Shown piece by piece: positions 1 to 27,792 of a stretch of 64,000 nt of DNA (its first letter is position 1; each line of letters starts with the position of its first letter). Made by a program: the position numbers and the translations under genes. The notes beneath the pieces were generated by a model, which was given only the letters and a program-made list of their open reading frames with translations, was not told the DNA's origin and made no database searches. The DNA is from Waddliaceae bacterium. Its GTDB lineage: Bacteria; Chlamydiota; Chlamydiia; Chlamydiales; Waddliaceae. Where the stretch lies: contig CAVRUH010000005.1 in the NCBI GenBank assembly GCA_963724325.1, positions 256,001 to 320,000 of the forward strand, in the 5' to 3' direction.

Positions 1-1179
1 TTTTATTGGTGGAAATGTTTTCTTAATTTCTTCAAAGATTTCTTTTAGAGCTGATATATCACTTAAGTTCACTTGAAATATTTCAATTTTTATGCCAGAC
101 GCCCGCCATTCTTTTAGCAAGGCTTCCATATGTGCGGACTTATCGTGAGAATCTACCAAAATCAGATTTTTAGCGCCATGTGCAATGTACCAAGTTGCAA
201 GTAATAGTCCTACAGGTCTGAAGCCGCCGGCGACCATATAGGTTGCATCAGCAGGAAAGTTCGGGATGCGAATTTCTTTAATACCTGATCGCACCATTCT
301 GTAAACTTGTCTTTTCCCATCTTTCCAGGCTATTTGCGGTTCATTGGATTTGGAACAAACTTCCAAAAATAATGTTTCGGCAATGTTTGCTATGTCAGTT
401 TTGGTGTCAAAGCCTATAGAGCAACAATGCATTAGAGGATTTTCTCCTTGGATGACTTTGCATACGGCTGCCAGGGGCCATTGGACTATGCTGTCAAAGC
501 TGCCGTCGTTGATGCAACTTTGTGAGACTACCCAAAGTTTTGGTGATTTTGAGAAATTTAAGGAATCGAATCCTTTGACTACATTGATAAGACAGGAAAA
601 TAGTGGTTTGTGATAGGACTCGATTGAGTTAACCGTTGGTTCAGACGTAAAATTTGTAGGCGGGCAAAGAAAAATCACACCTTCAAAGTAACTGAGGTCT
701 TTAAATTGTGAAAATGAATTCTGGAGATCATCTTGAGATAGGGGATTCACGACAAAACAATTTTGGAGTTCTTCCATTAATAGTTTTTTTATTAGAGGCA
801 ACAGGGGGTCAGATTCGATGCCTATAATTAGCCAGTTACCTTGGAATGGCAGGGAGTTGATTTCTGGTTTAGGACTATTTTTCCAAACGAATTCATATAG
901 CCAGTCTTTGAATTCATGTAATCTTGATTTAATAAGATATTGAATAATTGATTCGGCATTGGGATTTTGCAGTAAAAATATTGGGTGTAAATTGATTGAA
1001 AATTCTTTGTTTAAAGCATCGACAAGCAAATTAATTTGCATTGATTCAAATTTTAAATCAACTAAAGAAATCGCTCTTGTGTACATTTTTTGTTTTTCTT
1101 TTGGAAGTATGCCAAGGATTATTTGATCAACGGTTTCCCCTATGCTCTCAGGAGTAATATTTTTTTGTTTATCCATCAT
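1..1179 (-). CDS. Type I PKS-like protein, N-terminal part (ACP-like domain followed by ketoreductase subdomains); runs off window edge
   Basis: Manual translation of an open minus-strand frame from ATG at 1179 (RBS AGAGG) to base 1: MMDKQKNITPES...ISLVDLKFESMQINLLVDALNKEFSINLHPIFLLQNPNAESIIQYL (ACP-like) ...LWVVSQ...QWPLAAVCKVIQGENP...ATYMVAGGFRPVGLLLATWYIAHGAKNLILV (KR Rossmann start). Missing from the ORF track because the stop lies outside the window. Confidence 0.8.
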   Translation of the reverse strand, partial: MMDKQKNITPESIGETVDQIILGILPKEKQKMYTRAISLVDLKFESMQINLLVDALNKEFSINLHPIFLLQNPNAESIIQYLIKSRLHEFKDWLYEFVWKNSPKPEINSLPFQGNWLIIGIESDPLLPLIKKLLMEELQNCFVVNPLSQDDLQNSFSQFKDLSYFEGVIFLCPPTNFTSEPTVNSIESYHKPLFSCLINVVKGFDSLNFSKSPKLWVVSQSCINDGSFDSIVQWPLAAVCKVIQGENPLMHCCSIGFDTKTDIANIAETLFLEVCSKSNEPQIAWKDGKRQVYRMVRSGIKEIRIPNFPADATYMVAGGFRPVGLLLATWYIAHGAKNLILVDSHDKSAHMEALLKEWRASGIKIEIFQVNLSDISALKEIFEEIKKTFPPIK

Positions 1180-1256
1180 ATTCTACCTCTTTCCTTAAAT
1201 ATTTAGGATTTCAAAATAATTGTCAATATCATATTATAAATTTAATTTGAGGAAAA

Positions 1257-1841
1257 ATGGATAACAAAATTGCAGAATTATTAAGGCAAAAGCTTAATAG
1301 TGAGAGGATTGCATATTTTTTTGGGAGTTATGGACTTGAACAGTTGCCTTTTTTTTCAGAGGGTAGAGTCACGAACTTATATTCAATTCATGATAATGAA
1401 AAGATAATGCGTACCTTGGCAATTGTTGATTTTATTCAGCCGATTCATCCTGCACTTACGGATGTTCATCGCGAAATTATGGAAGGAAAATCCCTAGCAT
1501 TGACACTCCGCCAGAGAGGGTGGATGGTCAATAAAGTGCCGATATATTTTGGAATAATTTTACTTTCGTCGCGTTTGATGGAATGGATGCGAGAAAAAGA
1601 GAGCAACGAGGGGGCAATTCATATCTATCAGATGCGGGTTTCTAATGAGGGGCAAAAGGATGAGATTCCTTATTGTGTTGTAATTGAAATTCATAGTCCT
1701 CAATATCTTACATCTGAAAAGTTGCGTGCAATATATTTAGATCAATATGATAATTTTCGAATACGTACTGACGATGTTGTGAAGTTATTAGATCGAGTCG
1801 CAAAGGTAATTTTCAATCTGAAAATACCTAAGGAATTGTAA
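1257..1841 (+). CDS. Hypothetical protein, possibly chorismate-lyase (UbiC-like) fold
   Basis: 194 aa, RBS GAGG; weak resemblance of spacing and C-terminal VIEIHSP to chorismate pyruvate-lyase superfamily; family call tentative. Confidence 0.45.
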   Translation: MDNKIAELLRQKLNSERIAYFFGSYGLEQLPFFSEGRVTNLYSIHDNEKIMRTLAIVDFIQPIHPALTDVHREIMEGKSLALTLRQRGWMVNKVPIYFGIILLSSRLMEWMREKESNEGAIHIYQMRVSNEGQKDEIPYCVVIEIHSPQYLTSEKLRAIYLDQYDNFRIRTDDVVKLLDRVAKVIFNLKIPKEL

Positions 1842-1928: not shown

Positions 1929-3131
1929 ATGAAAGCAAAAGAAAAAATGAAAAAGTTATCGATAGCCATTATAGGTGGAGGCATTGGCGGCATGGCAACC
2001 GCACTCTCTCTTTTTCAGGCTGGATTTGACGTTCATGTATACGAAAAAGCGCGTGAACTGGGAGAGGTAGGTGCTGGAATTCAAGTTAGCCCCAACGCAA
2101 CGCGAATTTTGCATGGCTTTGGGCTTGCTGAAAAGCTTGCTACGATGGGAGTTCGTCCTCTTGCTTGGCAGCAAAGACGTTGGGATAATGGAAAAATATT
2201 GTTGCAAACGCCACTTGGAGATGCCGTTGAAGAGGCATTTGGCTATCCATATTATCAGATGCATCGTTCAGACCTTCTTTCAGCACTTATTGGCATCTTG
2301 CCAGTTGAAAGAGTACATCCCGGGCATCGATGTATAAATGTTATTGATCAGGAAAATAATGTTGAAATCAATTTTGAAAATGGTTCTAAGACGCAAGCAG
2401 ACATCGTTATTGGTGCTGATGGAATTCATTCTGTAGTTCGCAGCACGCTTTTTGGTACAGAAAGCCCTCATTTTACGGGATGTGTTGCTTATCGTGGACT
2501 GGTGCCAAAAGAAAGATTAAGTCATTTAAATCTTGACGTTACTTCACAGGTTTGGATGGGTCCGGAAAAGCATTTTGTCCATTATTTTGTTAGAAATAAG
2601 GAACTTATAAATTTCGTAGCTATTGTAGAGCAGGACACATGGACTCGGGAGTCATGGACAGACCGTTGCGAGTTGTCTCAGGTCCTTGCAGCATTTGAAG
2701 GATGGCATCCGCAGGTACGTAGTATTCTTGAGGCAGTTGATGACACTTTTATTTGGGGTTTATTTGATCGTGCACCTCTTCCAAAATGGTCTGTGGGAAG
2801 GATATCGCTATTAGGTGATGCATGTCATCCAATGCTGCCATTTATGGCTCAAGGGGCATCTCAAGCAATTGAAGATGGTGCTGCGTTAGCGGCTATACTT
2901 TCTGATAAGCCTGAAAGAGACATTGCGGAGTCATTAAAAATATATGAACAAATCAGACTCCCTAGGGCGTCTAAAGTACAGGGAATGTCTGCTCAGAATA
3001 AGAAACGTTTTCACCTTCCAGATGGTGCTGAGCAACAAAAACGCGATGCGGAAATGGCGAGTGGAGCGACTGATTGGGCTTTAAATGCTATTGCCTGGAT
3101 ATATGGTCATGATGCAAGAAAATTAACATAA
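1929..3131 (+). CDS. FAD-dependent aromatic monooxygenase (salicylate hydroxylase / 3-hydroxybenzoate 6-hydroxylase family)
   Basis: GGGIGG FAD motif, GADGIHS DG motif, LLGDACHPMLPFMAQGASQAIED GD motif. Confidence 0.9.
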   Translation: MKAKEKMKKLSIAIIGGGIGGMATALSLFQAGFDVHVYEKARELGEVGAGIQVSPNATRILHGFGLAEKLATMGVRPLAWQQRRWDNGKILLQTPLGDAVEEAFGYPYYQMHRSDLLSALIGILPVERVHPGHRCINVIDQENNVEINFENGSKTQADIVIGADGIHSVVRSTLFGTESPHFTGCVAYRGLVPKERLSHLNLDVTSQVWMGPEKHFVHYFVRNKELINFVAIVEQDTWTRESWTDRCELSQVLAAFEGWHPQVRSILEAVDDTFIWGLFDRAPLPKWSVGRISLLGDACHPMLPFMAQGASQAIEDGAALAAILSDKPERDIAESLKIYEQIRLPRASKVQGMSAQNKKRFHLPDGAEQQKRDAEMASGATDWALNAIAWIYGHDARKLT

Positions 3132-3140
3132 GGAGTGAAT

Positions 3141-4589
3141 ATGGATACAAATATACCTAAACATACGACAGTTCTCATCATTGGTGGAGGTCCTGCAGGA
3201 GCTTTGTCAGCATCTTTTCTTGTTCAGGAAGGGATTGATGTCGTAGTTTGCGAAAAAGAGAAATTTCCTCGATATCATATTGGTGAATCGATGCTTCCGT
3301 CGTTGCTACCCATTCTTGAATTTCTTGGTATAAGAGAAACAGTTGATAATTATGGATTTATTAAAAAATACGGAGCTCACTGGAAAATCAAGCAGAATCT
3401 TCCGGATGCACATACCGATTTCCGTAAGCAACCTAAGTATAAATACAGCTATCAGGTGGTTAGATCTGAATTTGATGAACTCATCCTAAATTGTGCTGAA
3501 GAAAAAGGGGCAAAGGTGTTCCAGCAAACGGTCATTAAAGATGTTATTTTTGAGGGTGATAAGCCCGTCAGTGCTGTATGGGAAAGGGCAGATAAGTCTA
3601 CAGGGAGCATTTCTTTTGATTATCTTATTGATGCTTCTGGATTATCTGGTTTGTTATCTAATCGTTACCTCAAAAATAGAAAATTTCAGCCTGCATTTGC
3701 CAATATTGCCTTATGCCGGTATTGGAAAAATTTCAAACATTACACAGATCAACAGGGAAAAGAATATCCTGGCGAATTCCTCATGCATGCGATTGCTGAC
3801 GGCTCAGGATGGATTTGGGCCATCCCTTTACACAATGGCACGATCAGCATTGGGGTAGTTATTCCTGAGGCACACTACAAACAATTGCAAAGCCAAAATG
3901 TTTCTATGGATGAAATCTACAACTCAAAACTTGAGCTAGCTTATGGGATAAAAGACATCTTGGTCAATGCTGCAACAGAAGGGGAAACAAAATATTGGAA
4001 TGACTATTCCTATTTTGCTGAACAATTTGCTGGTGATAACTACAGGCTCGTAGGCGATGCAGCGGCCTTTTTAGACCCCCTTCTTTCTTCCGGATTGCAC
4101 ATTGCATCTATAGGAGCATTATCAGCTGCGGCGACTCTTTGCTCAATCATTAAAGGGGATTGCAGCCCAAAAGAGGCGGCAAAATTTCATGATGTATATA
4201 TCAGGTCGAGTTACACAAGATTCATGCTTCTTCTTTCGGCCATATATAGACAGATTACTAATCAAGAACAGGTGGTGCTGCAGGGAATAAGCGGCGAGAG
4301 CATTCAATCAGTATTTGATATTATTCAACCGATGTTGACGGGGAATTATGATATGAAAAAGGATCAACCTATGCAAGAACAGAAGGCTGATAAAATCATT
4401 GATTACATGCAGTCTCGATTTGCTGAATCATATGCCTCCGATAAGGATACATCTGCGCCTAATGCAGGAGAAAAATCCATAGCTGCAGTATTTAGTGAAA
4501 AAGATCTAGTCATTGATAGCTCTAATGCTATAAATGGTTATTTTATCAATTTAGAGAAAGGAAAATTGGGACTTCAAAAAGTAAAATGA
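3141..4589 (+). CDS. Flavin-dependent halogenase 1 (phenolic, RadH/Rdc2-like)
   Basis: GGGPAG, FPRYHIGESMLPS, GFIKKYGA (catalytic Lys region), WIWAIP (WxWxIP), GDAAAFLDPLLSSG; ATG 3141 follows AAGGAG. Confidence 0.9.
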   Translation: MDTNIPKHTTVLIIGGGPAGALSASFLVQEGIDVVVCEKEKFPRYHIGESMLPSLLPILEFLGIRETVDNYGFIKKYGAHWKIKQNLPDAHTDFRKQPKYKYSYQVVRSEFDELILNCAEEKGAKVFQQTVIKDVIFEGDKPVSAVWERADKSTGSISFDYLIDASGLSGLLSNRYLKNRKFQPAFANIALCRYWKNFKHYTDQQGKEYPGEFLMHAIADGSGWIWAIPLHNGTISIGVVIPEAHYKQLQSQNVSMDEIYNSKLELAYGIKDILVNAATEGETKYWNDYSYFAEQFAGDNYRLVGDAAAFLDPLLSSGLHIASIGALSAAATLCSIIKGDCSPKEAAKFHDVYIRSSYTRFMLLLSAIYRQITNQEQVVLQGISGESIQSVFDIIQPMLTGNYDMKKDQPMQEQKADKIIDYMQSRFAESYASDKDTSAPNAGEKSIAAVFSEKDLVIDSSNAINGYFINLEKGKLGLQKVK

Positions 4590-5842
4590 TGTATTTGCAT
4601 GAGCTCATAAAAAATGTAAATGAACCTCTTGCAATTCTCATTTTGCAATTTATTGTCATTCTTTCAGTGACACGCTTTTTTGGATTTATTTGTTTAAAAA
4701 TATCTCAACCCTCTGTAATTGGTCAGATTGCTGCGGGAATAGTTCTTGGGCCTTCTTTATTGGGATATTTCTATCCCGAATATTTAAATTTTTTATTTTC
4801 TCCTGCTTCGTTAAAGCCGCTTAGCCTTTTCAGTCAAGTGGGTTTAATGTTTTATATGTTTATTGTTGGGATGGAGATTGATATATTTGTATTGAAAAAT
4901 AAGGCTCGTCAAGCCATTGCCATCAGTACTGCTGGTATAATGGCTCCATTTATACTTGGGGTTTTGTTGGCGTATTTTATTTTCAATCTTTTTGCCCCTC
5001 CAAGCACCCCCTTTATTTCATTTGCACTTTTCTTCGGAATTGCGATGAGCATTACAGCGTTTCCTGTTTTAGCGCGCATCTTACAAGAAAGAGATTTGAC
5101 AAAGTCGAACATAGGTAAGCTGGCATTGACCTGTGCGGCTGTAAATGACGTTACTGCATGGTGTTTATTGGCCTGCATCACAGCAATTGCCACAGCTGGA
5201 AATATCAATACGGCTTTAATCACTGTGTTTTTGGCGATTATGTACATTTTGGTGATGATTAAAATCGTTCGTCCAATCATCCTGAAATATTCTGAAAATT
5301 ATCTTCCCAATAGAATCCTGCATCAGACAATTGTGTCGTTGATATTTGTGGTATTATTTGCCTCATCATATACCACGTATGCTTTTGGCATTCATGCGCT
5401 TTTTGGCGCCTTTATGGCGGGTGTTATTATGCCGCACAATGTCGCTTTTAGAAAGAATTTCACAGAAAAAATTGAAGATGTCAGCCTTGTTGTCTTGCTT
5501 CCGATTTTCTTTGTTTATTCAGGATTGCGAACTGACATTCAACTTCTCAATCAATCCAGTGAATGGCTGATTTGTCTACTAGTCATATTAGTGGCTATTG
5601 CGGGGAAATTTGGAGGCTGTGTTGTTGCTTCAAGGGCAGTTGGTGAAACTTGGAAAGATTCTCTTTTCATCGGGACATTAATGAATACCAGAGGGTTAAT
5701 GGAATTAATTGTCTTAAACGTCGGTTTCGATTTAGGAATTCTTACCTCAGAAATATTCACAATTCTTGTCTTGATGGCACTTATAACGACCTTTTTGACT
5801 AATCCAGCCCTCGATCTCATAAATCGCTTCTTCTGGCGTTGA
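4586..5842 (+). CDS. Cation/H+ antiporter (CPA2/Kef-like), halogenase-associated
   Basis: Multi-TM protein with [37 protein letters not shown] motifs; start overlaps halogenase stop (ATGA). Confidence 0.9.
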
Positions 5843-5861
5843 ATGCGTAGAAGCACATCTT

Positions 5862-6368
5862 AAATAACAATTCACAAAACTATAAAACCGTTGCAGCGCA
5901 GGCATAGGTATCGTAAACTTTCCTGCAAAAGGGAAACAGGATATGCAGGATCGCAAGCGGCAGGATATGAAGGATTATATGAAGATGATGTCAATTATTT
6001 TTTATTTTAAAGCAGGGTAAGAAGTTATATAAATCATTCATATCCTGCCGCTTGCGATCTTGCATATCCTGTTTTCCTTTTGCAGGAAGGTTAACAAGAT
6101 AGAGGTCATTGATACCTTGTAAACCTCCCTGCAAAAGGGAAACAGGATATGCAGGATCGCAAGCGGCAGGATATGAAGGATTATATGAAGATGATATCAA
6201 TTATTTTTTATTTTAAAGCAGGGTAAGAAGTTATATAAATCATTCATATCCTGCCGCTTGCGATCTTGCATATCCTGTTTTCCTTTTGCAGGAAGGTTTA
6301 CGATGCGTCTGCCTGCGCCTCCCTGCCGCTGCGCCTCTGCGTTTTTATAGTTCTGTGAATTGTTATTT
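5862..6368. repeat. Composite nested palindromic element (MITE/REP-like): outer inverted arms enclosing two tandem 183-bp units, each with ~58-bp terminal inverted repeats
   Basis: Outer arms AAATAACAATTCACAAAACTATAAAAC (5862) and GTTTTTATAGTTCTGTGAATTGTTATTT (ends 6368); inner units 5913-6095 and 6119-6301 are near identical. Confidence 0.9.
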
Positions 6369-8042
6369 TGACAGAGTGCTGGTGCTGGTGATGGTGACGG
6401 TGCCGGTGTCACCATTGACTTCGATGAGGTCCCCATCTTTAATGGCTACAGTAGCGTTATGAATCCCAAGAACAGCAGGAATCCCATATTCCCTTGCCAC
6501 GATAGCACAGTGGCAAAGAACCCCACCTATATTTGTAACAACAGCTTTAACAGCTCCAAAGAGCGGTGTCCAAACTGGAGATGTTGTTTTTGTTACAAGA
6601 ATGTCCCCTGGTTGAATTCTTTTAGCATCTTCGAGGTCCTTCACTATCCTTGCTGTACCACGTACAATGCCAGGTGAAGCTGCATTTCCAATTAATACAT
6701 GGGAATCTGCGGAGGGCTTTAATGGTCCACCAAAAAACTTTGTAATTCCCACATTTAACGAACTTTCTACGGGAAATGGCTCGGGCTCTGCCCCGATAAT
6801 AGAAGGTGGAGAAATCTTGGCAAAGTACTCCATTTCACTCTTTCGTTTTGAAATTTGAGGTCTAAGTTCCACTTCCGGCAATCTCTCGACTGCTTCAAGA
6901 ATCTCTTCCGGGAATAGATACAAAATTTCTTCTTCGTGATCTATTGCTTGAGCGAGAACAAATCGACGTCCAATTTCAAATAAGATTTTTCGCATGAGAT
7001 AAATCATACGCTGGTCTAAGACGTAATTATGATCCTCTTGCAATACAGAGGCAGTAACTGCGGCATCCAGTAGCATTTCGAATCGATTTCGGATCATAGC
7101 TGGGAAATTTTCAATTTTTTTACGTACCTGAGCTAGTTTCTGATCTCTTAGTTTTCTCGTTTCCTTTATGTGTTGACCGACATCGTGAGCTTCAGGCAAA
7201 AGGCAGTCCTGTATGTTTTTAATCGGCTTTTCTAAATCTTCAAGCCACGACTTATGGGTGAAATCAAGAGCTGTTTCGCAACGTTTTCCATGATTTTCTA
7301 ACACTTCTTGAATCTTCGCTAAATAGTCCCAACCGGCTTTTGACATTTGTAATGCCCCGACAATAGCTTCTGGAGGGTGCTTTCTTAAAACAAGCTCAAT
7401 ATTCTTATCCTTCATTGCTTCACGGCTTAATCTCCAAAATTCTATTTCCATTCGAGTGGTATCATCCTCAAAGCCCTCCAATAATTCAAGAGCCTCAAAA
7501 TCAGTAGCTTCTGGAAATAAGTCCTTATAAAATTCTTGAAATAAGCTCGGGGCAACCATCATCGGGACAACATTGATAAAATGAATTTCCCAGAGCTTGC
7601 GCATGCGCTCGATGGATTTAGAAAAGTGATTAATCAGTACTGTCATTGAGGAGGTTTTTAAGTTAATTTTCTCCATAAAATCTGTATGCTCAATGACTTG
7701 TGGTAAGAATTTATTATACCAATCATTTCGAAACGTGCTTAAAAATTGTTCTAATGCTTCCTCAGATTCCTGACTTTTTTCAGCGAATTCTTTGGGCGTA
7801 ACGGTAGGGTAGAGTGTCAGGTAGTAGTAGGTATTAAAGATTTTTACTTCGCATTTCAAAGGATATTTCAGGATTTTAAATGCCTGATTATACCCATGCG
7901 CCATGCTATCCCCTGAAAGTGATCTTGCCATAGGAGTGAATGGCACGGGGGCATGCATTTCGTCTTGTATCCATGACCTTGTTTTGTCTTCTGTCTTCTC
8001 CCATTGAATAGGAAAATTATCTGGTACTGAAATTTCCTTCAT
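6363..8042 (-). CDS. PEP-utilising phosphotransferase, substrate-binding plus swivel phospho-His domain (rifampin phosphotransferase / phenylphosphate synthase-like), lacking the ATP-grasp domain
   Basis: C-terminal GNAASPGIVRGTARIV...PGDILVTKTTSPVWTPLF...GGVLCHCAIVAREYGIPAV (phospho-His); long helical N-terminal region. Confidence 0.85.
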   Translation of the reverse strand: MKEISVPDNFPIQWEKTEDKTRSWIQDEMHAPVPFTPMARSLSGDSMAHGYNQAFKILKYPLKCEVKIFNTYYYLTLYPTVTPKEFAEKSQESEEALEQFLSTFRNDWYNKFLPQVIEHTDFMEKINLKTSSMTVLINHFSKSIERMRKLWEIHFINVVPMMVAPSLFQEFYKDLFPEATDFEALELLEGFEDDTTRMEIEFWRLSREAMKDKNIELVLRKHPPEAIVGALQMSKAGWDYLAKIQEVLENHGKRCETALDFTHKSWLEDLEKPIKNIQDCLLPEAHDVGQHIKETRKLRDQKLAQVRKKIENFPAMIRNRFEMLLDAAVTASVLQEDHNYVLDQRMIYLMRKILFEIGRRFVLAQAIDHEEEILYLFPEEILEAVERLPEVELRPQISKRKSEMEYFAKISPPSIIGAEPEPFPVESSLNVGITKFFGGPLKPSADSHVLIGNAASPGIVRGTARIVKDLEDAKRIQPGDILVTKTTSPVWTPLFGAVKAVVTNIGGVLCHCAIVAREYGIPAVLGIHNATVAIKDGDLIEVNGDTGTVTITSTSTLSK

Positions 8043-12322: not shown

Positions 12323-12862
12323 ATGCCAAGAGGTCAAATTATGAAAGAACAAGAAGTTGCAGCATTAATTTTTAAGTTATATGAATTAGGCGGCAAGCCT
12401 GCAGCGCGTGGCGCTGGAATCAGGAAATATCCTGAGGAGGCAGCTTTAATTCTAAAACTCTATGAATTGCGTCGGGAGCCAGTCATGCGTGAAGCTAGAA
12501 AATGGTGTACCTGGTCGTTAAACTTCGCAAGTGCTCAGGATTATTTTGACATTATGTTAAGTGAGAACAGTGACAGGATGCGCATGGTTTTTTCATATTG
12601 GGACATGGCAGCTTGTTTAGTAGAAACTGGACACATCAGTGATAAATTATTCAATAGTGTTGCCGACGAGCACATGTGGATGTTGGCCATCATTGAACCA
12701 ATTCTTGATGATGTTCGAAAAGGAATGCAGCGTCCGGATTACTTGATAAATTTAGAAGCAGTCATACATCGCATTCCTGGATACAAAGAAATGTTAGAGA
12801 ATAAACGGCAGGCACTGAAGGGAATGAAAGCAATGGCAGCGGAGCGTATGAAGAAAAAATAA
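12323..12862 (+). CDS. DUF4760-like protein, paralog A (with duplicated N-terminal helix)
   Basis: LILKLYELRREPVMREARKW...MVFSYWDMAACLV; ATG 12323 after GGAG; stop overlaps bshC start (TAATG). Confidence 0.6.
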   Translation: MPRGQIMKEQEVAALIFKLYELGGKPAARGAGIRKYPEEAALILKLYELRREPVMREARKWCTWSLNFASAQDYFDIMLSENSDRMRMVFSYWDMAACLVETGHISDKLFNSVADEHMWMLAIIEPILDDVRKGMQRPDYLINLEAVIHRIPGYKEMLENKRQALKGMKAMAAERMKKK

Positions 12863-19306: not shown

Positions 19307-19362
19307 ATAACAATTCACAAAACTATAAAAACGCAGAGGCGGTGACATACTTTTGTGAATTA
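19305..19362. repeat. Short copy of the outer arm of the 5862-6368 element
   Basis: AAATAACAATTCACAAAACTATAAAAACGCAGAGGCG matches the reverse complement of the right arm of the large element; ends with TTTTGTGAATTA; lies between convergent genes. Confidence 0.75.
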
Positions 19363-20484
19363 TGATTTTTTATTTAGGATGTATTCGTAGAACTGAACGT
19401 AGTGATTGATGATGTGAGAGACTGAGAACTTTTCACGTGCTCTTTTAATACTTTGCTGGCTCATTTTTTCGTATGCAATATTGTCTGAAAGTAGTTCAAT
19501 GGCATGATTTGCCATGCCATCAATGTCGCCTACAGGGCATAAATAACCCGTAATACCGTTTTCCACTACTTCTGGAAGCCCGCCAACATTTGCCCCAATC
19601 ACCGGCACCCCATAGGTCATAGCTTCTAATGCCACCAGTCCAAAACTTTCTTGTTCACTTGGGAGCAAAAGAAGATCGGCGCTTGCAATATACGAGTCAA
19701 TTTCTTGGTTAATTCCCAGAAAACATACATCTTCATCAAGATGATGATCCTGCACCATTTGATATATGTTATCAACTTCAGGGCCTGTTCCAAGTAATAA
19801 TAGTTTGCACTCAATTTTCTTTTTCATTTTTGTGAAGATCTTAATCACATCTCCAACGCGTTTCAGGGCACGGAAGTTTGAGGAGTGCAAAATCAGCTTT
19901 TCCCCTTCTTTAATGTAGCTCTCACGCATGTTTTGCGTCCCGATGAGGTCTCCATGAGGAATAAAAAAATTGTGAATGACTTCAATAGGCTTCTGAATAT
20001 CAAAATACTTCATAGTCGTTTCTTTTAAGTTTTCAGAAACCGCTGTTACCCCGTCACTTTTTTCAATGCTGAATTTTACAATTTCAAAATAACTGGGGTC
20101 TATGCCAACAAAAGTGATATCTGTCCCATGCAGCGTGGTGATTACCACAGGTCTCGATGTCCCTAACAACTGCTTTGCCAAAAAGGCACTTGTAGCATGC
20201 GGAATCGCATAATGGACATGCAGGACATCTAAATTGTATTTTTTAGAAATAGCGGCGATCTTAACAGAAAGAGTCAAAGCATAGTCGGGGTATTTAAACA
20301 GATCATAACGATTAATTTCTACACGATGAAAAAAAATTTTTTTAGTCTCAAACCTAAGTCTGAACGGGATTTCATAAGAAATAAAATGGATTTCATGACC
20401 TAATAATGCTAGTTGGTGTCCAAGTTCAGTTGCAAGGATACCGCTTCCTCCTAAGGATGGATAGCACACAATACCAATCTTCAT
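19360..20484 (-). CDS. bshA: N-acetyl-alpha-D-glucosaminyl L-malate synthase BshA (GT4)
   Basis: MKIGIVCYPSLGGSGILATELG, LHVHYAIPHA, TTLHGTDIT, SNFRALKRV, ESFGLVALEAM. Confidence 0.93.
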   Translation of the reverse strand: MKIGIVCYPSLGGSGILATELGHQLALLGHEIHFISYEIPFRLRFETKKIFFHRVEINRYDLFKYPDYALTLSVKIAAISKKYNLDVLHVHYAIPHATSAFLAKQLLGTSRPVVITTLHGTDITFVGIDPSYFEIVKFSIEKSDGVTAVSENLKETTMKYFDIQKPIEVIHNFFIPHGDLIGTQNMRESYIKEGEKLILHSSNFRALKRVGDVIKIFTKMKKKIECKLLLLGTGPEVDNIYQMVQDHHLDEDVCFLGINQEIDSYIASADLLLLPSEQESFGLVALEAMTYGVPVIGANVGGLPEVVENGITGYLCPVGDIDGMANHAIELLSDNIAYEKMSQQSIKRAREKFSVSHIINHYVQFYEYILNKKS

Positions 20485-20491
20485 TAATTTT

Positions 20492-21175
20492 CTAAACCTC
20501 GCGAGTACCCTTGGATATGGTCATGATGTCATCAATAAACAGAGGATTCCCTTTCATCAACCCCTGCGCATAGGGAACGCCCATCATCATTCCCAACCGT
20601 CCTGCCACAGTGTGTGTAATTTCCATGAAATCCATCGTTTTCATTTGACTCTCATGACATTGGATCATCTTTCGCCAAGCCTCCATATGATCGGAAATGT
20701 CAATCAAAAAATCAGGAACGGAAATCATAGGTGTCATGCAGTGTAATATACCATCTGGTCGATGAATAGGGAGATCAGGTAATATTTTCGCAAAACGCGA
20801 ATAGCGACATGCATTCCTTGATAGAAGGCCTGCAGCTATATGGTCTGGATGATTCTGCTCGCCTTTCCAATACGGTCCAAGAACAAGCCGGGGCTTGAAT
20901 TTCCGATACACTTCCACTAATTTTAACCGGCCTTCATAGTTGTCAAATACTCCACAATCAGGAAAATCGAGTATCACAACCTCTGCTCCAATAACGTCTG
21001 CAGCATTTTTTGCTTCTTTGCGCCTTATTTCTGGAGTTCCATTAGTCCCTCTTTCTCCGGAAGTAAGATGTACCATTACAATACTTTTTCCCTGCGAAGC
21101 CATCTTGGCTAAGATCCCTCCGCAAGTAAACTCAATGTCATCTGGATGTGCCCCTATTGCTAAAATGTCTACCAT
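20492..21175 (-). CDS. bshB1: Bacillithiol biosynthesis deacetylase BshB1 (PIG-L family)
   Basis: DILAIGAHPDDIE, GERGTNG, HPDH; directly upstream of bshA. Confidence 0.85.
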   Translation of the reverse strand: MVDILAIGAHPDDIEFTCGGILAKMASQGKSIVMVHLTSGERGTNGTPEIRRKEAKNAADVIGAEVVILDFPDCGVFDNYEGRLKLVEVYRKFKPRLVLGPYWKGEQNHPDHIAAGLLSRNACRYSRFAKILPDLPIHRPDGILHCMTPMISVPDFLIDISDHMEAWRKMIQCHESQMKTMDFMEITHTVAGRLGMMMGVPYAQGLMKGNPLFIDDIMTISKGTREV

Positions 21176-21395: not shown

Positions 21396-21608
21396 ATGGC
21401 AAATTCATTAAGAGAAGCAGTTAGAAAATGTTGTAGCACTGATCCACAAAAAGTTGTGAAATGTCTTGAGGCATGTAACATTCCACTAACTCCTGAAGAT
21501 AAAGCATGTTTTGCTCAGTGCCGTCTTGAAAAATTTTCTGATTCAAAACTCGAAGCATGCTTTAGTCCAAAAGTATGCGGTATGTTAGGAATTAAAAATC
21601 CTAAGTAA
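21396..21608 (+). CDS. 70-aa cysteine-rich peptide (8 Cys); candidate RiPP precursor, protease substrate or metal-binding peptide
   Basis: MANSLREAVRKCCSTDPQKVVKCLEACNIPLTPEDKACFAQCRLEKFSDSKLEACFSPKVCGMLGIKNPK; strong RBS GGAGG before ATG 21396. Confidence 0.7.
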   Translation: MANSLREAVRKCCSTDPQKVVKCLEACNIPLTPEDKACFAQCRLEKFSDSKLEACFSPKVCGMLGIKNPK

Positions 21609-21621: not shown

Positions 21622-23616
21622 TTATGAAAGGCTGTTCTTCGCAGCCTTTCTCAGAGCATTTACCCTTAGTAAGAACTTAACGATGACCACAGATGGCAAA
21701 AGCCAGCTGAGGTGAACGGTTGCAATCCCTAAGATCGTTTCAGGCAATACCATTCTTAAATAGTACTGGAATTCATAAGCTATAAATACTCCTGCTACCA
21801 GAAAGATAAAACATATGAGCCAATAGATAAGTTCATTCGAAAATTTTGGCCGAGATAACCATTTGTAGGCATCAACATCAAGATATTGTTGATTCAACGC
21901 TTCTTTACAAATTCCATAACCATCGCCATCAAACAAGGGATTCAAATTCTTAAATACACCGTAATATAATAAAAATGCCAATAGCCAAAAAAAGATCGCA
22001 AGTTGCGGTAACGGTATGATCCATGCCAGAATGCCTGCTATTCCTCCCATAAACAAATCCGCAAATGGACCAGCTATGCTGACACAAATGCGAGATGTAC
22101 GGTCCTCTAACCACATATCGGAAGTATCGACATATGCAATTAAACCAACCCAGGACAATATAACCCCGCCGTGATGTACTTCTCGACCATGAGATTTAGT
22201 TGCATATCCATGAGCAGCCTCGTGTATAACTACTGAAAATAGATAAACTAATAGTAGAGAAAAAAGAAGAGGAGCAACTGTAAAATTGGATTGAAGAATA
22301 GTCATCCCCTGAGCAAAAAATAATGACCACATGACGATCCCCAAAAGAGAAATACCCAATGTGATGATAAAACCTATAGGAGTAAACAAATATTGTACTA
22401 CTTTGCTGTAACTGTTGTTAAATTTGTGATCGATGTTATTAAATGTAATTTGAATATGACTCCATTTCCATATCAGGTCTTGAATACGCACTCTCAATGG
22501 TAACTCTTCTTTTGTCTCAATGGTACTAACATGGTGAATTTCCGGCATAAGAACAAAACCGGCATCTGCCAAATTAAATAAGGTGTCTGCAATAGCATCA
22601 GGAGCAAATATTTTGTGTAACTTATACATGTCTACAGTAAGCTCTTCTATCGTTCTCGTACCATCCAAAAGCTCCCATATATACCATCCTTCCTGAGACA
22701 GTTTAAAATACTTCCGATTAACAGGATCCTTAAGAATAGTCATCTTTTGGTCATCGTCTAATTGTCTTTCATAATGAAGGGTCCTCGCAAGGCGTATGGG
22801 ACGACTTCTTTGCACAACAAGGGTCATCATGGAAGCATGAATGTCGTGGTGTTCAATTAAGGCATCCAATTGTTTGCGTTTAAGAACAAGCAAAACACAT
22901 TTCATAAGTGTCCTAGCATTGGCATTTCGAGGGGAATCTGTTAAAATTGCCATTTCGCCGCAAATCATCGGCGGTTCTAATAGCGCTAGCCTTTTTCCAG
23001 TGCTATTTGTAATTTCTACCTGCCCATAACGGACAAGATAGCACTCTTCACCTTGATCACCTTCATTAAATAATGTGGTCCCACCTTCTACAATTCGTTC
23101 TTGAATCTGATCAGCAAGCCAAAGTATTTTTTCTTCAGGTAATGCTTCGAAAGGTTCCACTCTTTTAATAAAATTCATTCGCAATAATTTTTCGCCCAAT
23201 TGCTGCGTACTAGAATTAAATTCAGGATGTTTTTGAAGAAAATAATAAAAAGTTTCTAAATCCCATCCGATTAAAACGGTCTCTGTCAATGTTGTCAGCG
23301 TAGCTGTCCTCAGACCCGTACGGCTGAAAAATCCAAGTCGACTGAGTCCTATTGCATCTCCTTCTTTCAAGAGGATCACAGGAATTAGTTTAATTTGATC
23401 TCCTTCTTGTATCTCATGAGCGACTTCAACTTTGCCTTGAGCTATCAGATAGATCGCATCGACAATTTTTCCCTGTGATATGATCACTTGATTTTGAGGA
23501 AAGAGCTTTTCAAAAGAAAGCTTCACTAGTTCATCAATTTCTTCGGTCTTTAACTGACTGAAAAATGGATGGCTTGATACTAAAGATTTCTTATTTTCGG
23601 AACTCACTGAAGTCAT
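21622..23616 (-). CDS. 2x cNMP-binding + PqqD/RRE-like + M50 (site-2) membrane zinc peptidase fusion
   Basis: ICGEMAILTDSPRNANA cNMP cassette; YFKLSQEGWYIWELLDGTRTIEEL...LFNLADAGFV PqqD-like; VIHEAAH (HExxH), SIAGP, NLNPLFDGDGY M50 motifs with TM helices. Confidence 0.85.
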   Translation of the reverse strand: MTSVSSENKKSLVSSHPFFSQLKTEEIDELVKLSFEKLFPQNQVIISQGKIVDAIYLIAQGKVEVAHEIQEGDQIKLIPVILLKEGDAIGLSRLGFFSRTGLRTATLTTLTETVLIGWDLETFYYFLQKHPEFNSSTQQLGEKLLRMNFIKRVEPFEALPEEKILWLADQIQERIVEGGTTLFNEGDQGEECYLVRYGQVEITNSTGKRLALLEPPMICGEMAILTDSPRNANARTLMKCVLLVLKRKQLDALIEHHDIHASMMTLVVQRSRPIRLARTLHYERQLDDDQKMTILKDPVNRKYFKLSQEGWYIWELLDGTRTIEELTVDMYKLHKIFAPDAIADTLFNLADAGFVLMPEIHHVSTIETKEELPLRVRIQDLIWKWSHIQITFNNIDHKFNNSYSKVVQYLFTPIGFIITLGISLLGIVMWSLFFAQGMTILQSNFTVAPLLFSLLLVYLFSVVIHEAAHGYATKSHGREVHHGGVILSWVGLIAYVDTSDMWLEDRTSRICVSIAGPFADLFMGGIAGILAWIIPLPQLAIFFWLLAFLLYYGVFKNLNPLFDGDGYGICKEALNQQYLDVDAYKWLSRPKFSNELIYWLICFIFLVAGVFIAYEFQYYLRMVLPETILGIATVHLSWLLPSVVIVKFLLRVNALRKAAKNSLS

Positions 23617-23742: not shown

Positions 23743-25068
23743 TTGAACATTGAAACATTCGTTAGGGAATTGGGGCCGCTTAATATTCGTGATAATGCCG
23801 TATCCATTGGATACCTCAGGAAATGTCAGACTAAAAAATTCCTTAAAGGTCAATTAATTTATAAAATTGGTGAGATAGCCGATGCAGTCTATGTCATTAT
23901 TAGCGGAAAAGTTAAAATTTTCTATATAAATGAAAGCGGCGAAGAACTACTAGTGGCAGAAAAAAAAACAAAAGAATATTTCGGTGCCGATGCCCTCATT
24001 ACTTTTATGCCTTGTACTCGATTTTCAACAGCTCGTGCTACAGAAGATTCCGAATGCTTGGTGTTACTCAAACATGAACTCTATAAGGAATTTGAAACTC
24101 CTGCTGAAATATCAAAACTCACCGAAACAATGGGTTCCGATAACCTTTACAAAGAACTGGAGCAAAGTTTTAAAGATCTTCAACAAAATAAAATAGATCT
24201 TTCAAATATTCATGAAAAAAAAGCAAAATACTTAGACCGTCAAGTGATCTTCTTTCAGAATGAAAAACCGTTATATGCCTACATCATTGTCAGTGGTCAG
24301 GTTGATATTCGATCAGATACTCTAAATGAAAAAGAGGGTTTTAATAGTACTCTCGAAAAAGGTGAAATTTTTGGAGAATTGGGTTTGCTAAAAGATAGAC
24401 CCAGAGCTGCGATGGCAGTTTCTCGCGGCAATAGCGAACTGATGTTACTGGATAAAGAAACACTATTGCGGTTATATGGATCCAACGCCAACTTCAAAAA
24501 TATCATTACGACCTTAGGAAATACCTACAATTTACCTTTAAACGGCAGAACAATACGTTACGAAGGGGTTTTTCTAGGCATGAAAGCCATTTGTGTGAAA
24601 ATGGAACCATCTAAAGAAAAAACAGTGGTGAGTTATCAAGTTGTAGGTAAGGATATCTTCTGTATTTCCCAATTGGGTATTGAAGGCTACCAAACATATA
24701 TCTACAAAAAAAATCTTGAAGAAAGAAAAGAAATTTGGATTAAAAATGATTTATTAGTCGGCGTCGTCAATTACGGATCCAAAGATGATAACAGCGCATT
24801 GGTTGTAATGGTATTACAGGAAACAAAAGTAAGTAATAATGCTATTATGATTTTTCAAAAAACTGGAATATTTACTGAGCAGGCTGCGCAACCACTCAAG
24901 GTGTTAAATAACTTGCTCTGCAGATGCATGCAAGTTGAATATCAAACGGTGGCTCAAGCGATTCAATCCGGAGAAAATTCATTGGAACAAATCACAAAAA
25001 TTACAGGTGCTGGATCAGTTTGCGGCAGCTGTAGGCCAAAAATTAAAGAAATGCTAGGAAAGGACTAA
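23743..25068 (+). CDS. 2x cNMP-binding + BFD-like [2Fe-2S] protein (paralog of 15899..17938 without the reductase domains)
   Basis: IFGELGLLKDRPRAA; LCRCMQV...TGAGSVCGSCRP followed by stop; TTG start. Confidence 0.85.
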   Translation: MNIETFVRELGPLNIRDNAVSIGYLRKCQTKKFLKGQLIYKIGEIADAVYVIISGKVKIFYINESGEELLVAEKKTKEYFGADALITFMPCTRFSTARATEDSECLVLLKHELYKEFETPAEISKLTETMGSDNLYKELEQSFKDLQQNKIDLSNIHEKKAKYLDRQVIFFQNEKPLYAYIIVSGQVDIRSDTLNEKEGFNSTLEKGEIFGELGLLKDRPRAAMAVSRGNSELMLLDKETLLRLYGSNANFKNIITTLGNTYNLPLNGRTIRYEGVFLGMKAICVKMEPSKEKTVVSYQVVGKDIFCISQLGIEGYQTYIYKKNLEERKEIWIKNDLLVGVVNYGSKDDNSALVVMVLQETKVSNNAIMIFQKTGIFTEQAAQPLKVLNNLLCRCMQVEYQTVAQAIQSGENSLEQITKITGAGSVCGSCRPKIKEMLGKD

Positions 25069-25081
25069 AAAGGAATAGCTT

Positions 25082-26437
25082 ATGCCCGAAATACCAGTAA
25101 TAAAAATGCCCGAATCAGAATTTTTTTCCTGGAATCGAAACGATCCCGTAGGGCTTCGAAGGTATATTTTTAACACCTATGGTGATATCGCTAAAATCGA
25201 TATGAAATCAATGCCTAATTATTTTTTTATGAGTCCAGACCATGCACAAGTTATCTTTGGTGAAAAACAGGATAATTTTTTTGATAAACATCCATTTCTG
25301 GTACATGGTTTTGCCCCAATCATTGGTACAGACACATTTTTTACTCTGAATGATCGAGAAAAATGGAAAAAAGATCGTCATATTGCATTGAAAGCAATAG
25401 ATGCCATGGTCCACTTCGAACGCTATGCAAAAAGAATGTACGAAATGGGAAAAATGCGTGTCGATGGATGGACACAAAAATATAAAGATAACCAAAAAGT
25501 CAATATGGCGCGTGAATTTGGTTCAATGACCCTAGACTTCATTCATAATTCCTTCTTTTGCTATATCGATGAAGTCCCTGAAAAAATGTACGACACCCTG
25601 TATGACTGCGTAGGTATCATCATTGATAAGCAAACCTCTCTTAAACCCTCCGAATGGGAAACGCCAAAAAAAATAAAAATTTATGAAGATGCTGTCGGTA
25701 CATTAAGACAAATATATCAGATCTGGGTAAAAAATCGTCTCGACTCAGGCCAGGAGTTTGATGATTTTATGGGTCTAATGATTCATGAATACTCAAACGA
25801 GTTTGGCAAAGAAAAATTAATCGAAAATATGGCTCTTCAAGTCTCTATGGCCTCTACTGCAGGATTCTTCACCAGTTCTCCTGCCTTTTTGTGGCTCTTT
25901 ATAGAGCTGGCACAGCATCCCGATGTGGAAAAGAAAATTTGCGAAGAAATCAATCGTGTCATCGGCGATGGTCAACCAACATATGAACAAATAAGACAAC
26001 TGTCTTACTGCAATGCCGCGATCAAAGAATCCATGCGATTGAATCCTACAAGCTACAATACATTGAGAGTGTGTACGGAGGATACCTATGTCAAAGATTA
26101 TTTAATTCCGAAAGGATCAGGAATCATCGTTTCTATATCCCAAATTCACCGCCACCCAAATTTTTGGAAAGATCCAGATACTTTTAATCCCGATCGATTT
26201 TTAGACAAACCAATGGGGCAGGATCATCCCTATGCCTTTATCCCTTTCGGGGCTGGTAAAAGAGCTTGCATCGCCCGGCAGCTTGTATTTTTAGAACTAC
26301 TTATCGCTCTGGTGCTCATTACACGTCGATTTTCTTTTGAACTTGTTCCTTTTCGGCCTATTAAACCAATAATGACAGCGCCCATCACCATGAGGCCAAA
26401 TGAGACCGATCTGATCATAAAATTTAAAAAAACTTAA
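25082..26437 (+). CDS. Cytochrome P450 (paralog B)
   Basis: AGFFTSS, KESMRL, FNPDRF, PFGAGKRACIA; same length as and collinear with paralog A. Confidence 0.95.
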   Translation: MPEIPVIKMPESEFFSWNRNDPVGLRRYIFNTYGDIAKIDMKSMPNYFFMSPDHAQVIFGEKQDNFFDKHPFLVHGFAPIIGTDTFFTLNDREKWKKDRHIALKAIDAMVHFERYAKRMYEMGKMRVDGWTQKYKDNQKVNMAREFGSMTLDFIHNSFFCYIDEVPEKMYDTLYDCVGIIIDKQTSLKPSEWETPKKIKIYEDAVGTLRQIYQIWVKNRLDSGQEFDDFMGLMIHEYSNEFGKEKLIENMALQVSMASTAGFFTSSPAFLWLFIELAQHPDVEKKICEEINRVIGDGQPTYEQIRQLSYCNAAIKESMRLNPTSYNTLRVCTEDTYVKDYLIPKGSGIIVSISQIHRHPNFWKDPDTFNPDRFLDKPMGQDHPYAFIPFGAGKRACIARQLVFLELLIALVLITRRFSFELVPFRPIKPIMTAPITMRPNETDLIIKFKKT

Positions 26438-26556
26438 AAAAATACTTGTGTAAATTTCTGGAAAAAATTAGTATCCAATTATAAATCGAAAACAATGAAT
26501 TTTAGCTGCGAAGTGCAGTGACGATTTATGTAAAGGTAACTCAAAAAGGGAGCCAT

Positions 26557-27792
26557 ATGAATATTTCAAAAATCACCACAACTCTGTTGATTGCACTATT
26601 TTGCACAACCGCAGTTGTTGAAGCTCAGCAAAGTATCTACCGCTGGGGCTATGGAGTAAAAGCCATAGGTATGGGGGGCGTTTCAATGGCACTCCCTCAA
26701 GATAGCCAAATAGCCGCAACCAATCCAGCAGGTATGGTATTTGTTGGAAACCGTTGGGACTTAGATATTTTGGGCGGGTATAATGATGTCGTAGGAAAAA
26801 TCGAAGGCAACGCTTATCCAACAAATAATGCCAAATGCCATGATCACACCTTTTGGGGCCCCTATATAGATGGTGGTTTCAACATGATGCTGAGTGACAA
26901 CCTTTCCGTAGGTTTCTCAATGTATGGAACAGGTGGAAAAGTCAGTAATACACACAATCAAAGTACCATATATGGCACAAGCAGACGCTATGTTGAGTAT
27001 GGAGCCTTCTTCTTCACTCCAACATTAGCATGGAGATTTTGTGGATGTCATGCCATCGGTTTTGGACCAACTGCAAGCTTTGCACTATTGAAGCTGAAAG
27101 GATTTCAATCATTCGAAGGAAGTTCCATCCACCCTCACCATGTGACTGGAAAAAACTACAACTACAAACCCGGCCTAGGCTACACAGTAGGCTACATGGG
27201 TAAGTTTTTTGATTGTTTTTCAGTGGGTGTATCATATCACTCAAAGCAATGGCAGAAGAAATTTAATAAATATAAAGGATATCTTCCAGGACAAGGAAAT
27301 AACGATATTCCAGCCTACGCTGCAGCAGGGATCGCATTTCACCCTTCTTGCAGAAGTGTAGTCGGATTCGACGTTTTCCGTCACTTCAACACACAATCGA
27401 GACTTTTTGGTAATAGACTCACGATTGACCATGAAGCCGGTTCTAATAAAGGTACAGGTTTTGGATGGAAAGATACATGGGACTTTAAAGTAGGCGGAGC
27501 TTTTGATATAAACGATTGCTTCACAGTACGTACAGGCTTTAATTATTGCCTGCAACAGGTTCCACGCAGTCAAACTCTATCTAACCTCCCTGCTGGGTTG
27601 GTAGTGAATCACCATTTTACGGTGGGTGCTACATGGCATTTTAATGCCTGCATTGATTTGGAATTTGCCTTCGTTGATGGTTGGAGTACTGTTAAAGGAC
27701 GTCACTCCATTCCAGAAGCATATGGTGGAGGAGAAGCCAGCGTTCGAAATACAGAACCAGTTTTGTACTTAGGAATTGGCGTAAAGCTATAA
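26557..27792 (+). CDS. FadL/TodX/OmpP1 family outer-membrane transporter for hydrophobic compounds
   Basis: Signal peptide, GYGVKAIGMGGVSMALPQD...ATNPAGM (NPA hatch motif), GFGWKD, beta-barrel C-terminus. Confidence 0.85.
   Translation: MNISKITTTLLIALFCTTAVVEAQQSIYRWGYGVKAIGMGGVSMALPQDSQIAATNPAGMVFVGNRWDLDILGGYNDVVGKIEGNAYPTNNAKCHDHTFWGPYIDGGFNMMLSDNLSVGFSMYGTGGKVSNTHNQSTIYGTSRRYVEYGAFFFTPTLAWRFCGCHAIGFGPTASFALLKLKGFQSFEGSSIHPHHVTGKNYNYKPGLGYTVGYMGKFFDCFSVGVSYHSKQWQKKFNKYKGYLPGQGNNDIPAYAAAGIAFHPSCRSVVGFDVFRHFNTQSRLFGNRLTIDHEAGSNKGTGFGWKDTWDFKVGGAFDINDCFTVRTGFNYCLQQVPRSQTLSNLPAGLVVNHHFTVGATWHFNACIDLEFAFVDGWSTVKGRHSIPEAYGGGEASVRNTEPVLYLGIGVKL

Follow-up and report, generated by a model that had tools for sequence, protein, structure and literature searches.

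Bacterial gene clusters that turn chorismate into halogenated phenols are the closest described counterparts of the locus analyzed here, the left 27.8 kb of a 64-kb window (G000:C5:256001-320000; "the window" denotes the full 64 kb) from the genome of a Waddliaceae bacterium, which contains two flavin-dependent halogenase genes, two cytochrome P450 (P450) genes and the head of a shikimate operon. [quoted passage not shown] For an ambigol product, uncoupling activity has been described (PMC13097137). In Microbulbifer, a cluster of DAHP synthase, halogenase, lyase and P450 genes (bp607-610) yields tetrabromobiphenyldiol (PMC10579414), and the planctomycete baa cluster is of the same chorismate-to-halophenol type (bioRxiv 10.1101/723874). 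According to one study, biosynthetic gene clusters are widespread across the Chlamydiae, their products being unknown, and the means by which amoebal chlamydiae protect their hosts are not known (PMC9666466). The first-pass annotation of this DNA had called such clusters not typical of Chlamydiota, which is too broad for biosynthetic gene clusters as such, although "halogen" and "P450" are indeed absent from the main text of that study, whose supplements may list such clusters. No report of a chlamydial halogenase cluster was found in the literature, with supplement Data S10 of PMC9666466 lying outside this search.

By analogy with the bmp, bp607-610, baa and ambigol clusters, the left part of the stretch would encode a pathway from chorismate to a halophenol or halogenated hydroquinone, a reading to which we assign a probability of roughly 45%. 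The pathway is likely built onto the head of the shikimate operon. From the observed gene order, folds, motifs and rarity of the genes we infer the following core: DAHP synthase and aroA-C would supply chorismate (step 1), a cytoplasmic lyase-fold protein would release 4-hydroxybenzoate (step 2), a NahG/NicC-type monooxygenase would swap its carboxyl for a hydroxyl to give hydroquinone (step 3), and RadH-type halogenases would add chlorine or bromine next to a free phenolic hydroxyl, before or after step 3 (step 4). The lyase-fold protein, the hydroxylase, halogenase 1 and an antiporter are encoded on one strand at intervals of 87, 3 and -4 nt (Table 1), and across 77 nt this run diverges from an operon that continues leftward out of the window and comprises, on one strand, a polyketide synthase (PKS)-like gene and, after a 12-nt gap, DAHP synthase, aroA, aroK/B, aroDE and aroC. 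In a same-genus genome used for comparison (G001, 97% complete), the aro operon sits in the same conserved block, which we take to be prfB-GNAT-yebC, with different genes upstream, and no match to the DAHP synthase described here was found. Another chlamydia (G027, L265:1769-9206) has a candidate for a second aromatic pathway: there, a DAHP synthase of the same type (54%) stands first, followed by a cupin, an unknown gene, three FAD monooxygenases and a class V aminotransferase.

The putative 4-hydroxybenzoate synthase has 52 detected relatives, and a model built from 51 sequences (pLDDT 93) superimposes on 2nwi (AF1396/DUF98) with Z 12.4 and a root-mean-square deviation (rmsd) of 2.4 over 130 residues and on UbiC 1fw9 with Z 8.4 and rmsd 3.4 over 124 residues, in agreement with Foldseek. 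R37 and E144 are invariant in all 51 family members and, by hand alignment only, fall on R76 and E155 of UbiC, which bind 4-hydroxybenzoate (PMC7879144). Neither Pfam PF04345 nor PF01947 matched any of the 51 members, PF04345 has no match anywhere in the source genome, and an Atlas search of the family gave a lead only, with low recognition. A hydrophobic N-terminal stretch is present in 48 of the 51 members and barely below threshold in two more. The window copy alone is clearly without it, and its ATG is preceded, at a distance of two codons, by an in-frame TGA (1248-1250), which would fit an exported protein having been recruited to a cytoplasmic pathway. Relatives in 12 other genomes (L129-L141) form an unannotated chlamydial family with a chorismate-lyase/UTRA fold, signal-peptide-like N-termini and the invariant Arg and Glu; this family could be exported and bind or cleave chorismate.

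The hydroxylase is likely to catalyze decarboxylative hydroxylation of a hydroxy-aromatic acid, as suggested by the presence of 6-hydroxynicotinate 3-monooxygenase (NicC, 267 bits), decarboxylative vanillate 1-hydroxylase (262 bits) and 4-hydroxybenzoate decarboxylase (245 bits) among its six best PDB matches. It is 58.9% identical to a Nonomuraea protein. Elsewhere in the phylum, FAD monooxygenase-FNR-2Fe-2S fusions of about 770 residues occur in four chlamydial genomes (L228-L231, L237:9786-12125), one of them beside menaquinone genes.

Both halogenases carry the flavin-dependent halogenase motifs GxGxxG, WxWxIP and Fx.Px.Sx.G (PMC8407142), the latter two as WIWAIP and FLDPLLSSG, and all three are invariant in the halogenase alignment A1. 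The best PDB match of the halogenase profile is RadH (8gu0, 377.6 bits; next entry 217.9), and in the HMMER alignment to 8gu0 the K77 and D313 of halogenase 2 meet K74 and D325, which are essential in RadH (PMC10377541). By family, both enzymes are likely RadH-type phenol halogenases with predicted halogenating activity. A halogenated phenolic product, already proposed in the first-pass annotation, stands as the best reading, as suggested by the RadH residues and motifs, the lyase fold, the hydroxylase group and the adjoining shikimate operon.

The four closest halogenase relatives are 54-65% identical and the remainder 47% or less, several of the latter named from Myxococcota. The window enzymes fall into a seven-member clade (support 100, FastTree, 146 rows) placed among sequences without organism names; no donor is claimed because the tree, which leaves out RadH, ChlA, PltM and Bmp2, carries long-branch and composition warnings. 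No member of the close clade was found among 60 relatives, in 400 sampled genomes of the phylum, or among the matches listed from genome and metagenome collections. In five of the 400, all of family f37, a distant halogenase (31-36%) stands solo and forms a long branch of its own; in five of that family's eight genomes (L124-L128) this halogenase-like gene occupies a fixed slot near holB/tmk/gyrA, without tailoring genes. Surroundings were compared at 80 named-genome loci of more distant relatives, 51 of which reach 20 kb, and at 80 metagenome loci; these counts do not include the neighborhoods of P0002 and P0004-P0006, the four closest halogenases. A CPA2 antiporter is found at 22 of the named-genome loci, within 2.5 kb downstream on the same strand at 11, and an FAD monooxygenase at 10; the metagenome loci yielded four antiporters and one FAD monooxygenase. 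On these antiporter counts, halogenase plus antiporter is a recurrent module, and the remaining genes are not conserved among the loci examined. In the pathway, the antiporter may provide halide or pH balance, and FADH2 may be delivered by the FAD/NAD domain of a local reductase with domains of the cyclic nucleotide monophosphate (cNMP)-binding type, or by another reductase.

Phosphorylation would form a further step of the halophenol pathway (step 5), in which the dikinase would mask the phenol by esterifying it with phosphate and the metallophosphoesterase would unmask it, serving self-protection or retention. The ATP-grasp and substrate-binding/His-swivel subunits are split and the T/SxxGGxxxH motif is present, as in the two-subunit phenol kinases HpeHI, CreHI and PpsAB, whose substrate-binding subunits share about 45% identity (PMC12167813). 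The large-subunit gene is divergent from halogenase 2. Dikinase matches occur in 22 of 149 other genomes scored, nearly all to the His domain only, and the metallophosphoesterase was not found in five family genomes. These genes could also belong to an uptake and detoxification island, in which FadL imports phenolics, the dikinase traps them, the hydroxylase and P450s oxidize them and bacillithiol and NmrA handle quinones, halogenation being incidental or the halogenases acting as oxidoreductases. The start of phenol catabolism by characterized two-component dikinases (PMC12167813), the Rhizobium plasmid homolog in a catabolic-type operon of biotin carboxylase, HAD and CoA ligase, and the mostly catabolic hydroxylase group are in line with such an island. 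It is nevertheless quite unlikely, given that no ring-cleavage gene was seen among the Pfam-scanned window ORFs (open reading frames), that both halogenases are intact in WxWxIP and Fx.Px.Sx.G, that the best plasmid dikinase homolog lies in an NRPS cluster and that linkage with the aro operon speaks for synthesis.

The two P450s retain an intact ESMR at 316 (ExxR) and heme motif (FGAGKRxCIA at 389), and none of the nearest full-length relatives in a set of 1.84 billion representatives exceeds 33% identity. Their I-helix reads AGFFT, compared with AGYET in CYP3A4, the alcohol being kept and the acid replaced by Phe. The acid is absent from the top 18 of 24 full-length relatives picked from the best 150 (one of them has Glu one column on) and kept in six. 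Acid loss in CYP114 goes with unusual chemistry (PMC10293830). Sequences P0199-P0228 represent this subfamily of about 450 residues, 28-33% identical to the window P450s, with the I-helix acid replaced by a hydrophobic or small residue. Among 249 other genomes, a P450 was detected at E<=1e-20 in one, as a BM3-like fusion.

Each P450 gene begins 12-13 nt behind that of its [2Fe-2S] partner. The first-pass annotation had described ferredoxin/reductase fusions for both; the 2Fe-2S partners are there, whereas the FAD/NAD domain exists only in the 15899-17938 copy, and the two cNMP-binding domains of each partner had gone unnamed. The partner family is rare, a threshold of E<=1e-30 yielding 21 proteins. 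Contig C7 has two further cNMP2-BFD(-FNR) genes and G001 has one, all without a P450, and one relative is fused to an FAD oxidoreductase. The C7 copies (L122:6952-8391, L123:5498-7522) are not beside a heme enzyme either, one being convergent with PAS/GAF histidine kinase genes. A scan of viral sequences with the reductase alignment gave two weak partial matches only. The cNMP2-BFD-FAD/NAD reductase is predicted to be the electron donor of the P450s. Its FAD/NAD domain weakly matches Fre and, because the 27.8-kb stretch has no separate flavin reductase, is a candidate supplier of FADH2, so that it possibly also acts as flavin reductase of the halogenases. In a less certain step 6, coupling of the monomers by the acid-less P450s, on the model of bmp and ambigol chemistry, would yield biaryls or diaryl ethers, with bacillithiol quenching quinones; should the core hold, such coupling is conceivable, at somewhat less than even odds.

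The PKS-like gene at the left edge had been described as an ACP-KR PKS fragment. Acyl carrier protein (ACP) and ketoreductase (KR) regions are indeed present, but the gene, cut only by the window edge, is complete at 671 residues (C5:257179-255164) and degenerate. Its order is ACP, KR structural and catalytic subdomains, ACP; ketosynthase (KS) and acyltransferase (AT) domains are missing, and tblastn of a PKS from contig C1 matches only the KR-ACP part here. The catalytic Tyr of the C1 enzyme aligns to His, the NADPH loop has decayed and the C-terminal ACP reads GLDK against GMDS, while the N-terminal ACP keeps Ser46 and scores above the Pfam cut-off. Because KS and AT are absent, the KR has no Tyr and the last ACP no Ser, a working PKS is not found locally, and the protein is likely inactive as a PKS. 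In the family genome G004, a 31% homolog, equally degenerate, is part of a 1166-residue protein, with no halogenase in 35 kb. There (C9:102786-110073, L285-L286), the ACP-KR-ACP protein has a long N-terminal extension and is followed by a 1151-residue carboxyltransferase-like protein, a pair that suggests a family of pseudo-PKS scaffolds. A halogenated polyketide, with chlorinated DIF-1 as a parallel, was part of the first-pass interpretation; a DIF-1-like or radicicol-like product would come from the local gene or from the complete type I PKS on C1 (KS-AT-dehydratase-enoylreductase-KR-ACP). Its appeal lies in the native RadH substrate, a resorcylic polyketide (PMC10377541), in the completeness of the C1 enzyme and in the Ser kept by the first local ACP. 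The local gene is degenerate, no type I PKS other than the C1 enzyme was found, and that enzyme is conserved at 68% in G001, a genome without the halogenases; this origin lacks local support and is highly improbable.

Other genes of the stretch have histories of their own. In the family genomes G002 and G004, bshB-bshA lies beside dnaA and bshC elsewhere, and G001 has no match to bshA or bshC; the clustering of all three within 9 kb in the window, far apart in G002 and G004, may suit quinone detoxification or be due to chance. The window BshC has 429 residues, compared with open frames of 474-526 in relatives, and because its matches break off near residue 375 and pick up again past a gap, an internal segment is missing. 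The cNMP2-RRE-M50 gene (RRE, RiPP recognition element; RiPP, peptide synthesized by the ribosome and modified after translation) is present in two of 149 other genomes. In G001, a homolog of the 70-residue peptide (37%, E 1.7e-9) adjoins an RRE-M50 gene (L263:9774-12201), without P450 or halogenase, and the pair resembles a small module of the RiPP type whose sensor domains are of the cyclic-nucleotide kind. The G001 peptide shares the leader-like part without Cys, has a long Gln/Lys-rich tail and is encoded upstream and co-directionally. An Atlas search with the window peptide returned nothing, and complex prediction with the RRE region scored 0.00, which gives no verdict either way. Cross-linking of the peptide by the P450s was considered and rejected; Tyr, Trp and His are all missing from the peptide, and the pair persists in G001, where no P450 accompanies it. 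FadL homologs occur in four of five family genomes, and the 201-residue protein at 10524..11129 is probably outside the pathway.

Several observations weigh against the chorismate-to-halophenol pathway. Orientation is mixed in the 27.8-kb stretch and unrelated genes intervene, and the same DAHP synthase type stands in ordinary aro or chorismate-mutase contexts elsewhere (G047, G003). UTRA ligand-binding domains share the fold of the lyase candidate with Z up to 10.7, above the value for UbiC, hhalign of the family to UbiC gives a probability of 1%, and the window copy has Ala at a position where 50 of 51 members keep Gly. The family occurs alone, with unrelated genes in its 1.5-kb flanks, in 12 of 249 other genomes, its sequences look exported, which is ill-fitting for a chorismate lyase, and the family may bind ligands without being a lyase. 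The best PDB match of the hydroxylase is tropone 2-monooxygenase (303 bits), and F328 of RadH is Leu in both halogenases ("LL" at this site in 78 of 146 related sequences). P450 and DAHP synthase genes each appear at one of the 80 named-genome halogenase loci, and lyase, dikinase subunits, phosphoesterase and NmrA at none. The dikinase large subunit is only 25% identical to its counterpart in the Rhizobium pair, in an Hpe-like operon, and 27% to that of a Bacillus pair in an NRPS cluster, these two plasmid pairs being the basis of the comparison. The acid-less I-helix, because 18 of 24 chosen relatives share it, is by alignment a subfamily trait and not special to the locus. Elsewhere, no halogenase accompanies the bacillithiol genes, the peptide/RRE-M50 pair or the cNMP reductase, and the gene set was not found in a second genome; G001 has no match to the window halogenase, lyase, P450, antiporter, phosphoesterase, NmrA or DUF4760.

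Accordingly, a plasticity zone of independent modules is a serious possibility. The halogenases would then act on a phenol made elsewhere, either a host compound or an alkylresorcinol or pyrone from a type III PKS operon on C1, the lyase-fold gene would encode a ligand-binding protein, and the P450/cNMP cassettes, the RiPP-like pair and the bacillithiol genes would each have their own job. Each module occurs alone elsewhere, as the cNMP2-BFD genes on C7 and in G001, the peptide with RRE-M50 in G001, bshAB beside dnaA, FadL and the solo f37 halogenase illustrate, and genes to the right of the 27.8 kb are accessory too. A related halogenase in a Synechococcus metagenome-assembled genome adjoins ORFs read as type I and type III PKS, the type III label being our own reading, and what we take to be a type III PKS-like operon (C1:145490-148375) is shared with G001. 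The single strand and tight gaps of the lyase-fold, hydroxylase and halogenase 1 genes are less easily reconciled with independent modules, as are the singular N-terminus of the window lyase copy among 51 and the three bsh genes lying so close together.

The proposed chorismate-derived core sits in a stretch that is a mosaic, coherent at its left. The first-pass annotation had placed every gene it listed correctly, while omitting bshC, bshA and bshB1, the DUF4760 pair, the RRE-M50 gene with the 70-residue ORF, the repeat and the DAHP/aro operon. Its treatment of the whole 28 kb as one locus is not supported, several of the genes being part of the family's native stock or found alone elsewhere. 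Its assignment of the contig to a chlamydia holds: P0162, assigned by its source to Candidatus Protochlamydia sp., has an identical counterpart in G144, a genome from the same order as the source genome, and the source genome (2.37 Mb, 11 contigs, 84.6% complete) encodes tandem nucleoside triphosphate/diphosphate (NTP/NDP) exchangers above the family cut-off. PF03504 as a chlamydial marker had no match anywhere, controls included, and is uninformative. The GC content of the stretch is 0.382 against a mean of 0.398 (as low in 11% of 421 windows), and its median GC at third codon positions is 0.349 (as low in 21% of 1214 gene runs). Because this composition is not foreign and a palindromic repeat native to the genome (723 BLAST pieces genome-wide) sits inside, the stretch is neither contamination nor a very recent import; both were rejected on host-like codon use, the native repeat and the chlamydial core genes on the 356-kb contig C5.

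Table 1. Genes and repeats of the left 27.8 kb of the window (window positions).
Position	Strand	Feature	Basis or remark
1..1179	-	5' part of 671-residue degenerate PKS-like protein (ACP-KR-ACP)	head of aro operon
1257..1841	+	chorismate-lyase/UTRA-fold protein, 194 residues, candidate 4-hydroxybenzoate synthase	model, fold match
1929..3131	+	FAD aromatic monooxygenase, NahG/NicC group, candidate decarboxylative 4-hydroxybenzoate 1-hydroxylase	profile and PDB matches
3135..4589	+	flavin-dependent halogenase 1, RadH type	GxGxxG, KKYG, WIWAIP, FLDPLLSSG
4586..5842	+	CPA2 cation/H+ antiporter	profile match; overlaps halogenase 1
5843..6362	.	two tandem copies of the genome's palindromic intergenic repeat	BLAST
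6363..8042	-	dikinase substrate-binding and His-swivel subunit	TNIGGVLCH, His511
8165..9631	+	flavin-dependent halogenase 2, RadH type	shares 64% identity with halogenase 1
9621..10472	+	calcineurin-like metallophosphoesterase	all five metal motifs; overlaps halogenase 2
10524..11129	-	201-residue protein, hydrophobic N-terminus, no family	profile scans
11352..12200	-	dikinase ATP-grasp subunit (PPDK_N)	profile match
12323..12862	+	DUF4760 protein	start placed at ATG behind ribosome site
12862..14151	+	BshC, bacillithiol cysteine-adding enzyme	TIGR03998 above cut-off
14302..14727	+	second DUF4760 protein	profile match
14796..15749	-	NmrA-like NAD(P)-binding protein	profile match
15899..17938	+	cNMP-cNMP-BFD[2Fe-2S]-FAD/NAD reductase, 679 residues	domain scan
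17951..19306	+	cytochrome P450 a, orphan subfamily	Phe in place of the I-helix acid
19360..20484	-	BshA	TIGR03999 above cut-off
20492..21175	-	BshB1-like deacetylase	TIGR04001, 172.5 bits (cut-off 182.5)
21396..21608	+	70-residue peptide with 8 Cys	homolog adjoins same RRE-M50 gene in G001
21622..23616	-	cNMP-cNMP-PqqD(RRE)-M50 peptidase	domain scan
23743..25068	+	cNMP-cNMP-BFD[2Fe-2S] protein without FAD/NAD domain	domain scan
25082..26437	+	cytochrome P450 b	69% identical to P450 a; I-helix also acid-less
26518..27792	+	FadL-type outer-membrane channel	profile match

To the right of the tabulated stretch, the accessory genes (33289-35138, 37285-39102, 47787-48551, 49973-51253, 53952-55770) include a 2-oxoglutarate-Fe(II) oxygenase, a bicupin, an S15 peptidase, a phytochelatin synthase, an amine oxidase and a PALP gene, apparently split into two ORFs, that adjoins an ornithine cyclodeaminase. 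Patatin (with a weak match to a CBASS lipase), OTU deubiquitinase-like, SidF-like (a fragment) and ankyrin genes, of a kind typical of host-associated bacteria, lie at 27887-29790, 46275-47753 and 57744-58778, and an AbiEii gene is in two pieces.

The locus offers a bacterial pair of RadH-type halogenases, an acid-less P450 subfamily, a cNMP-domain reductase of a rare kind and an unannotated family with the chorismate-lyase fold, the rest of which looks exported, and its small soluble enzymes can be assayed without growing the organism. The gene set is known from one genome, and the chemistry likely associated with it was not found described for chlamydiae. A further-reaching version of the pathway, which is unlikely, would be a complete halophenol weapon assembled from non-bmp parts, namely a lyase recruited from an exported protein, the hydroxylase, the RadH pair, acid-less P450s, cyclic-nucleotide-gated reductases and phosphate-ester storage of a toxic, probably uncoupling product that the phosphoesterase would set free. 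If true, this would represent a signal-triggered chemical defense inside a eukaryotic host.

Compared with the described systems, the locus shares with the ambigol cluster, as the content of the latter is reported, a DAHP synthase, a putative lyase, two halogenases and two P450s, whereas the acyl-CoA synthetase and NRPS-type carrier said to belong to that cluster have no counterpart among the window ORFs scanned or the six aro genes to the left. DAHP synthase, lyase fold, halogenase, P450 and ferredoxin/reductase are likewise common to the locus and to bmp5-7 and bp607-610 (PMC10579414; bioRxiv 10.1101/723874). The parallel to bmp drawn in the first-pass annotation applies to the logic and not to the parts. 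Bmp5 is a single-component decarboxylating enzyme without WxWxIP, whereas the window halogenases are of the two-component RadH type with this motif; because no Bmp5-type halogenase was seen among the scanned window ORFs, the locus is not a bmp member, and its separate NahG/NicC-type hydroxylase could perform the decarboxylation instead. The bmp lyase is of the UbiC type, the window lyase-fold protein is not PF04345, the window genes do not form one tandem operon, and the dikinase, phosphoesterase and cNMP domains lack a counterpart in bmp as described in these sources. With RadH/Rdc2 (8gu0; PMC10377541), the window enzymes match over the full length including the C-terminus, with the K74 and D325 equivalents and three motifs, but they carry Leu for F328 and the window locus has no resorcylate PKS. 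The split subunits and the T/SxxGGxxxH motif of the dikinase recall HpeHI, CreHI and PpsAB and RPH (PMC12167813), although the subunit genes lie 3.3 kb apart with no carboxylase nearby. Finally, the window reductase is comparable in design to the N-terminal 2Fe-2S/FAD reductase of the nitric oxide synthases of Sorangium and Silicibacter (PMC4436077): both combine 2Fe-2S and FAD/NAD(P)H modules positioned so as to feed a heme enzyme, but the window protein stands alone, carries two cNMP-type domains and is encoded upstream of the P450s, with one copy lacking the flavin domain.

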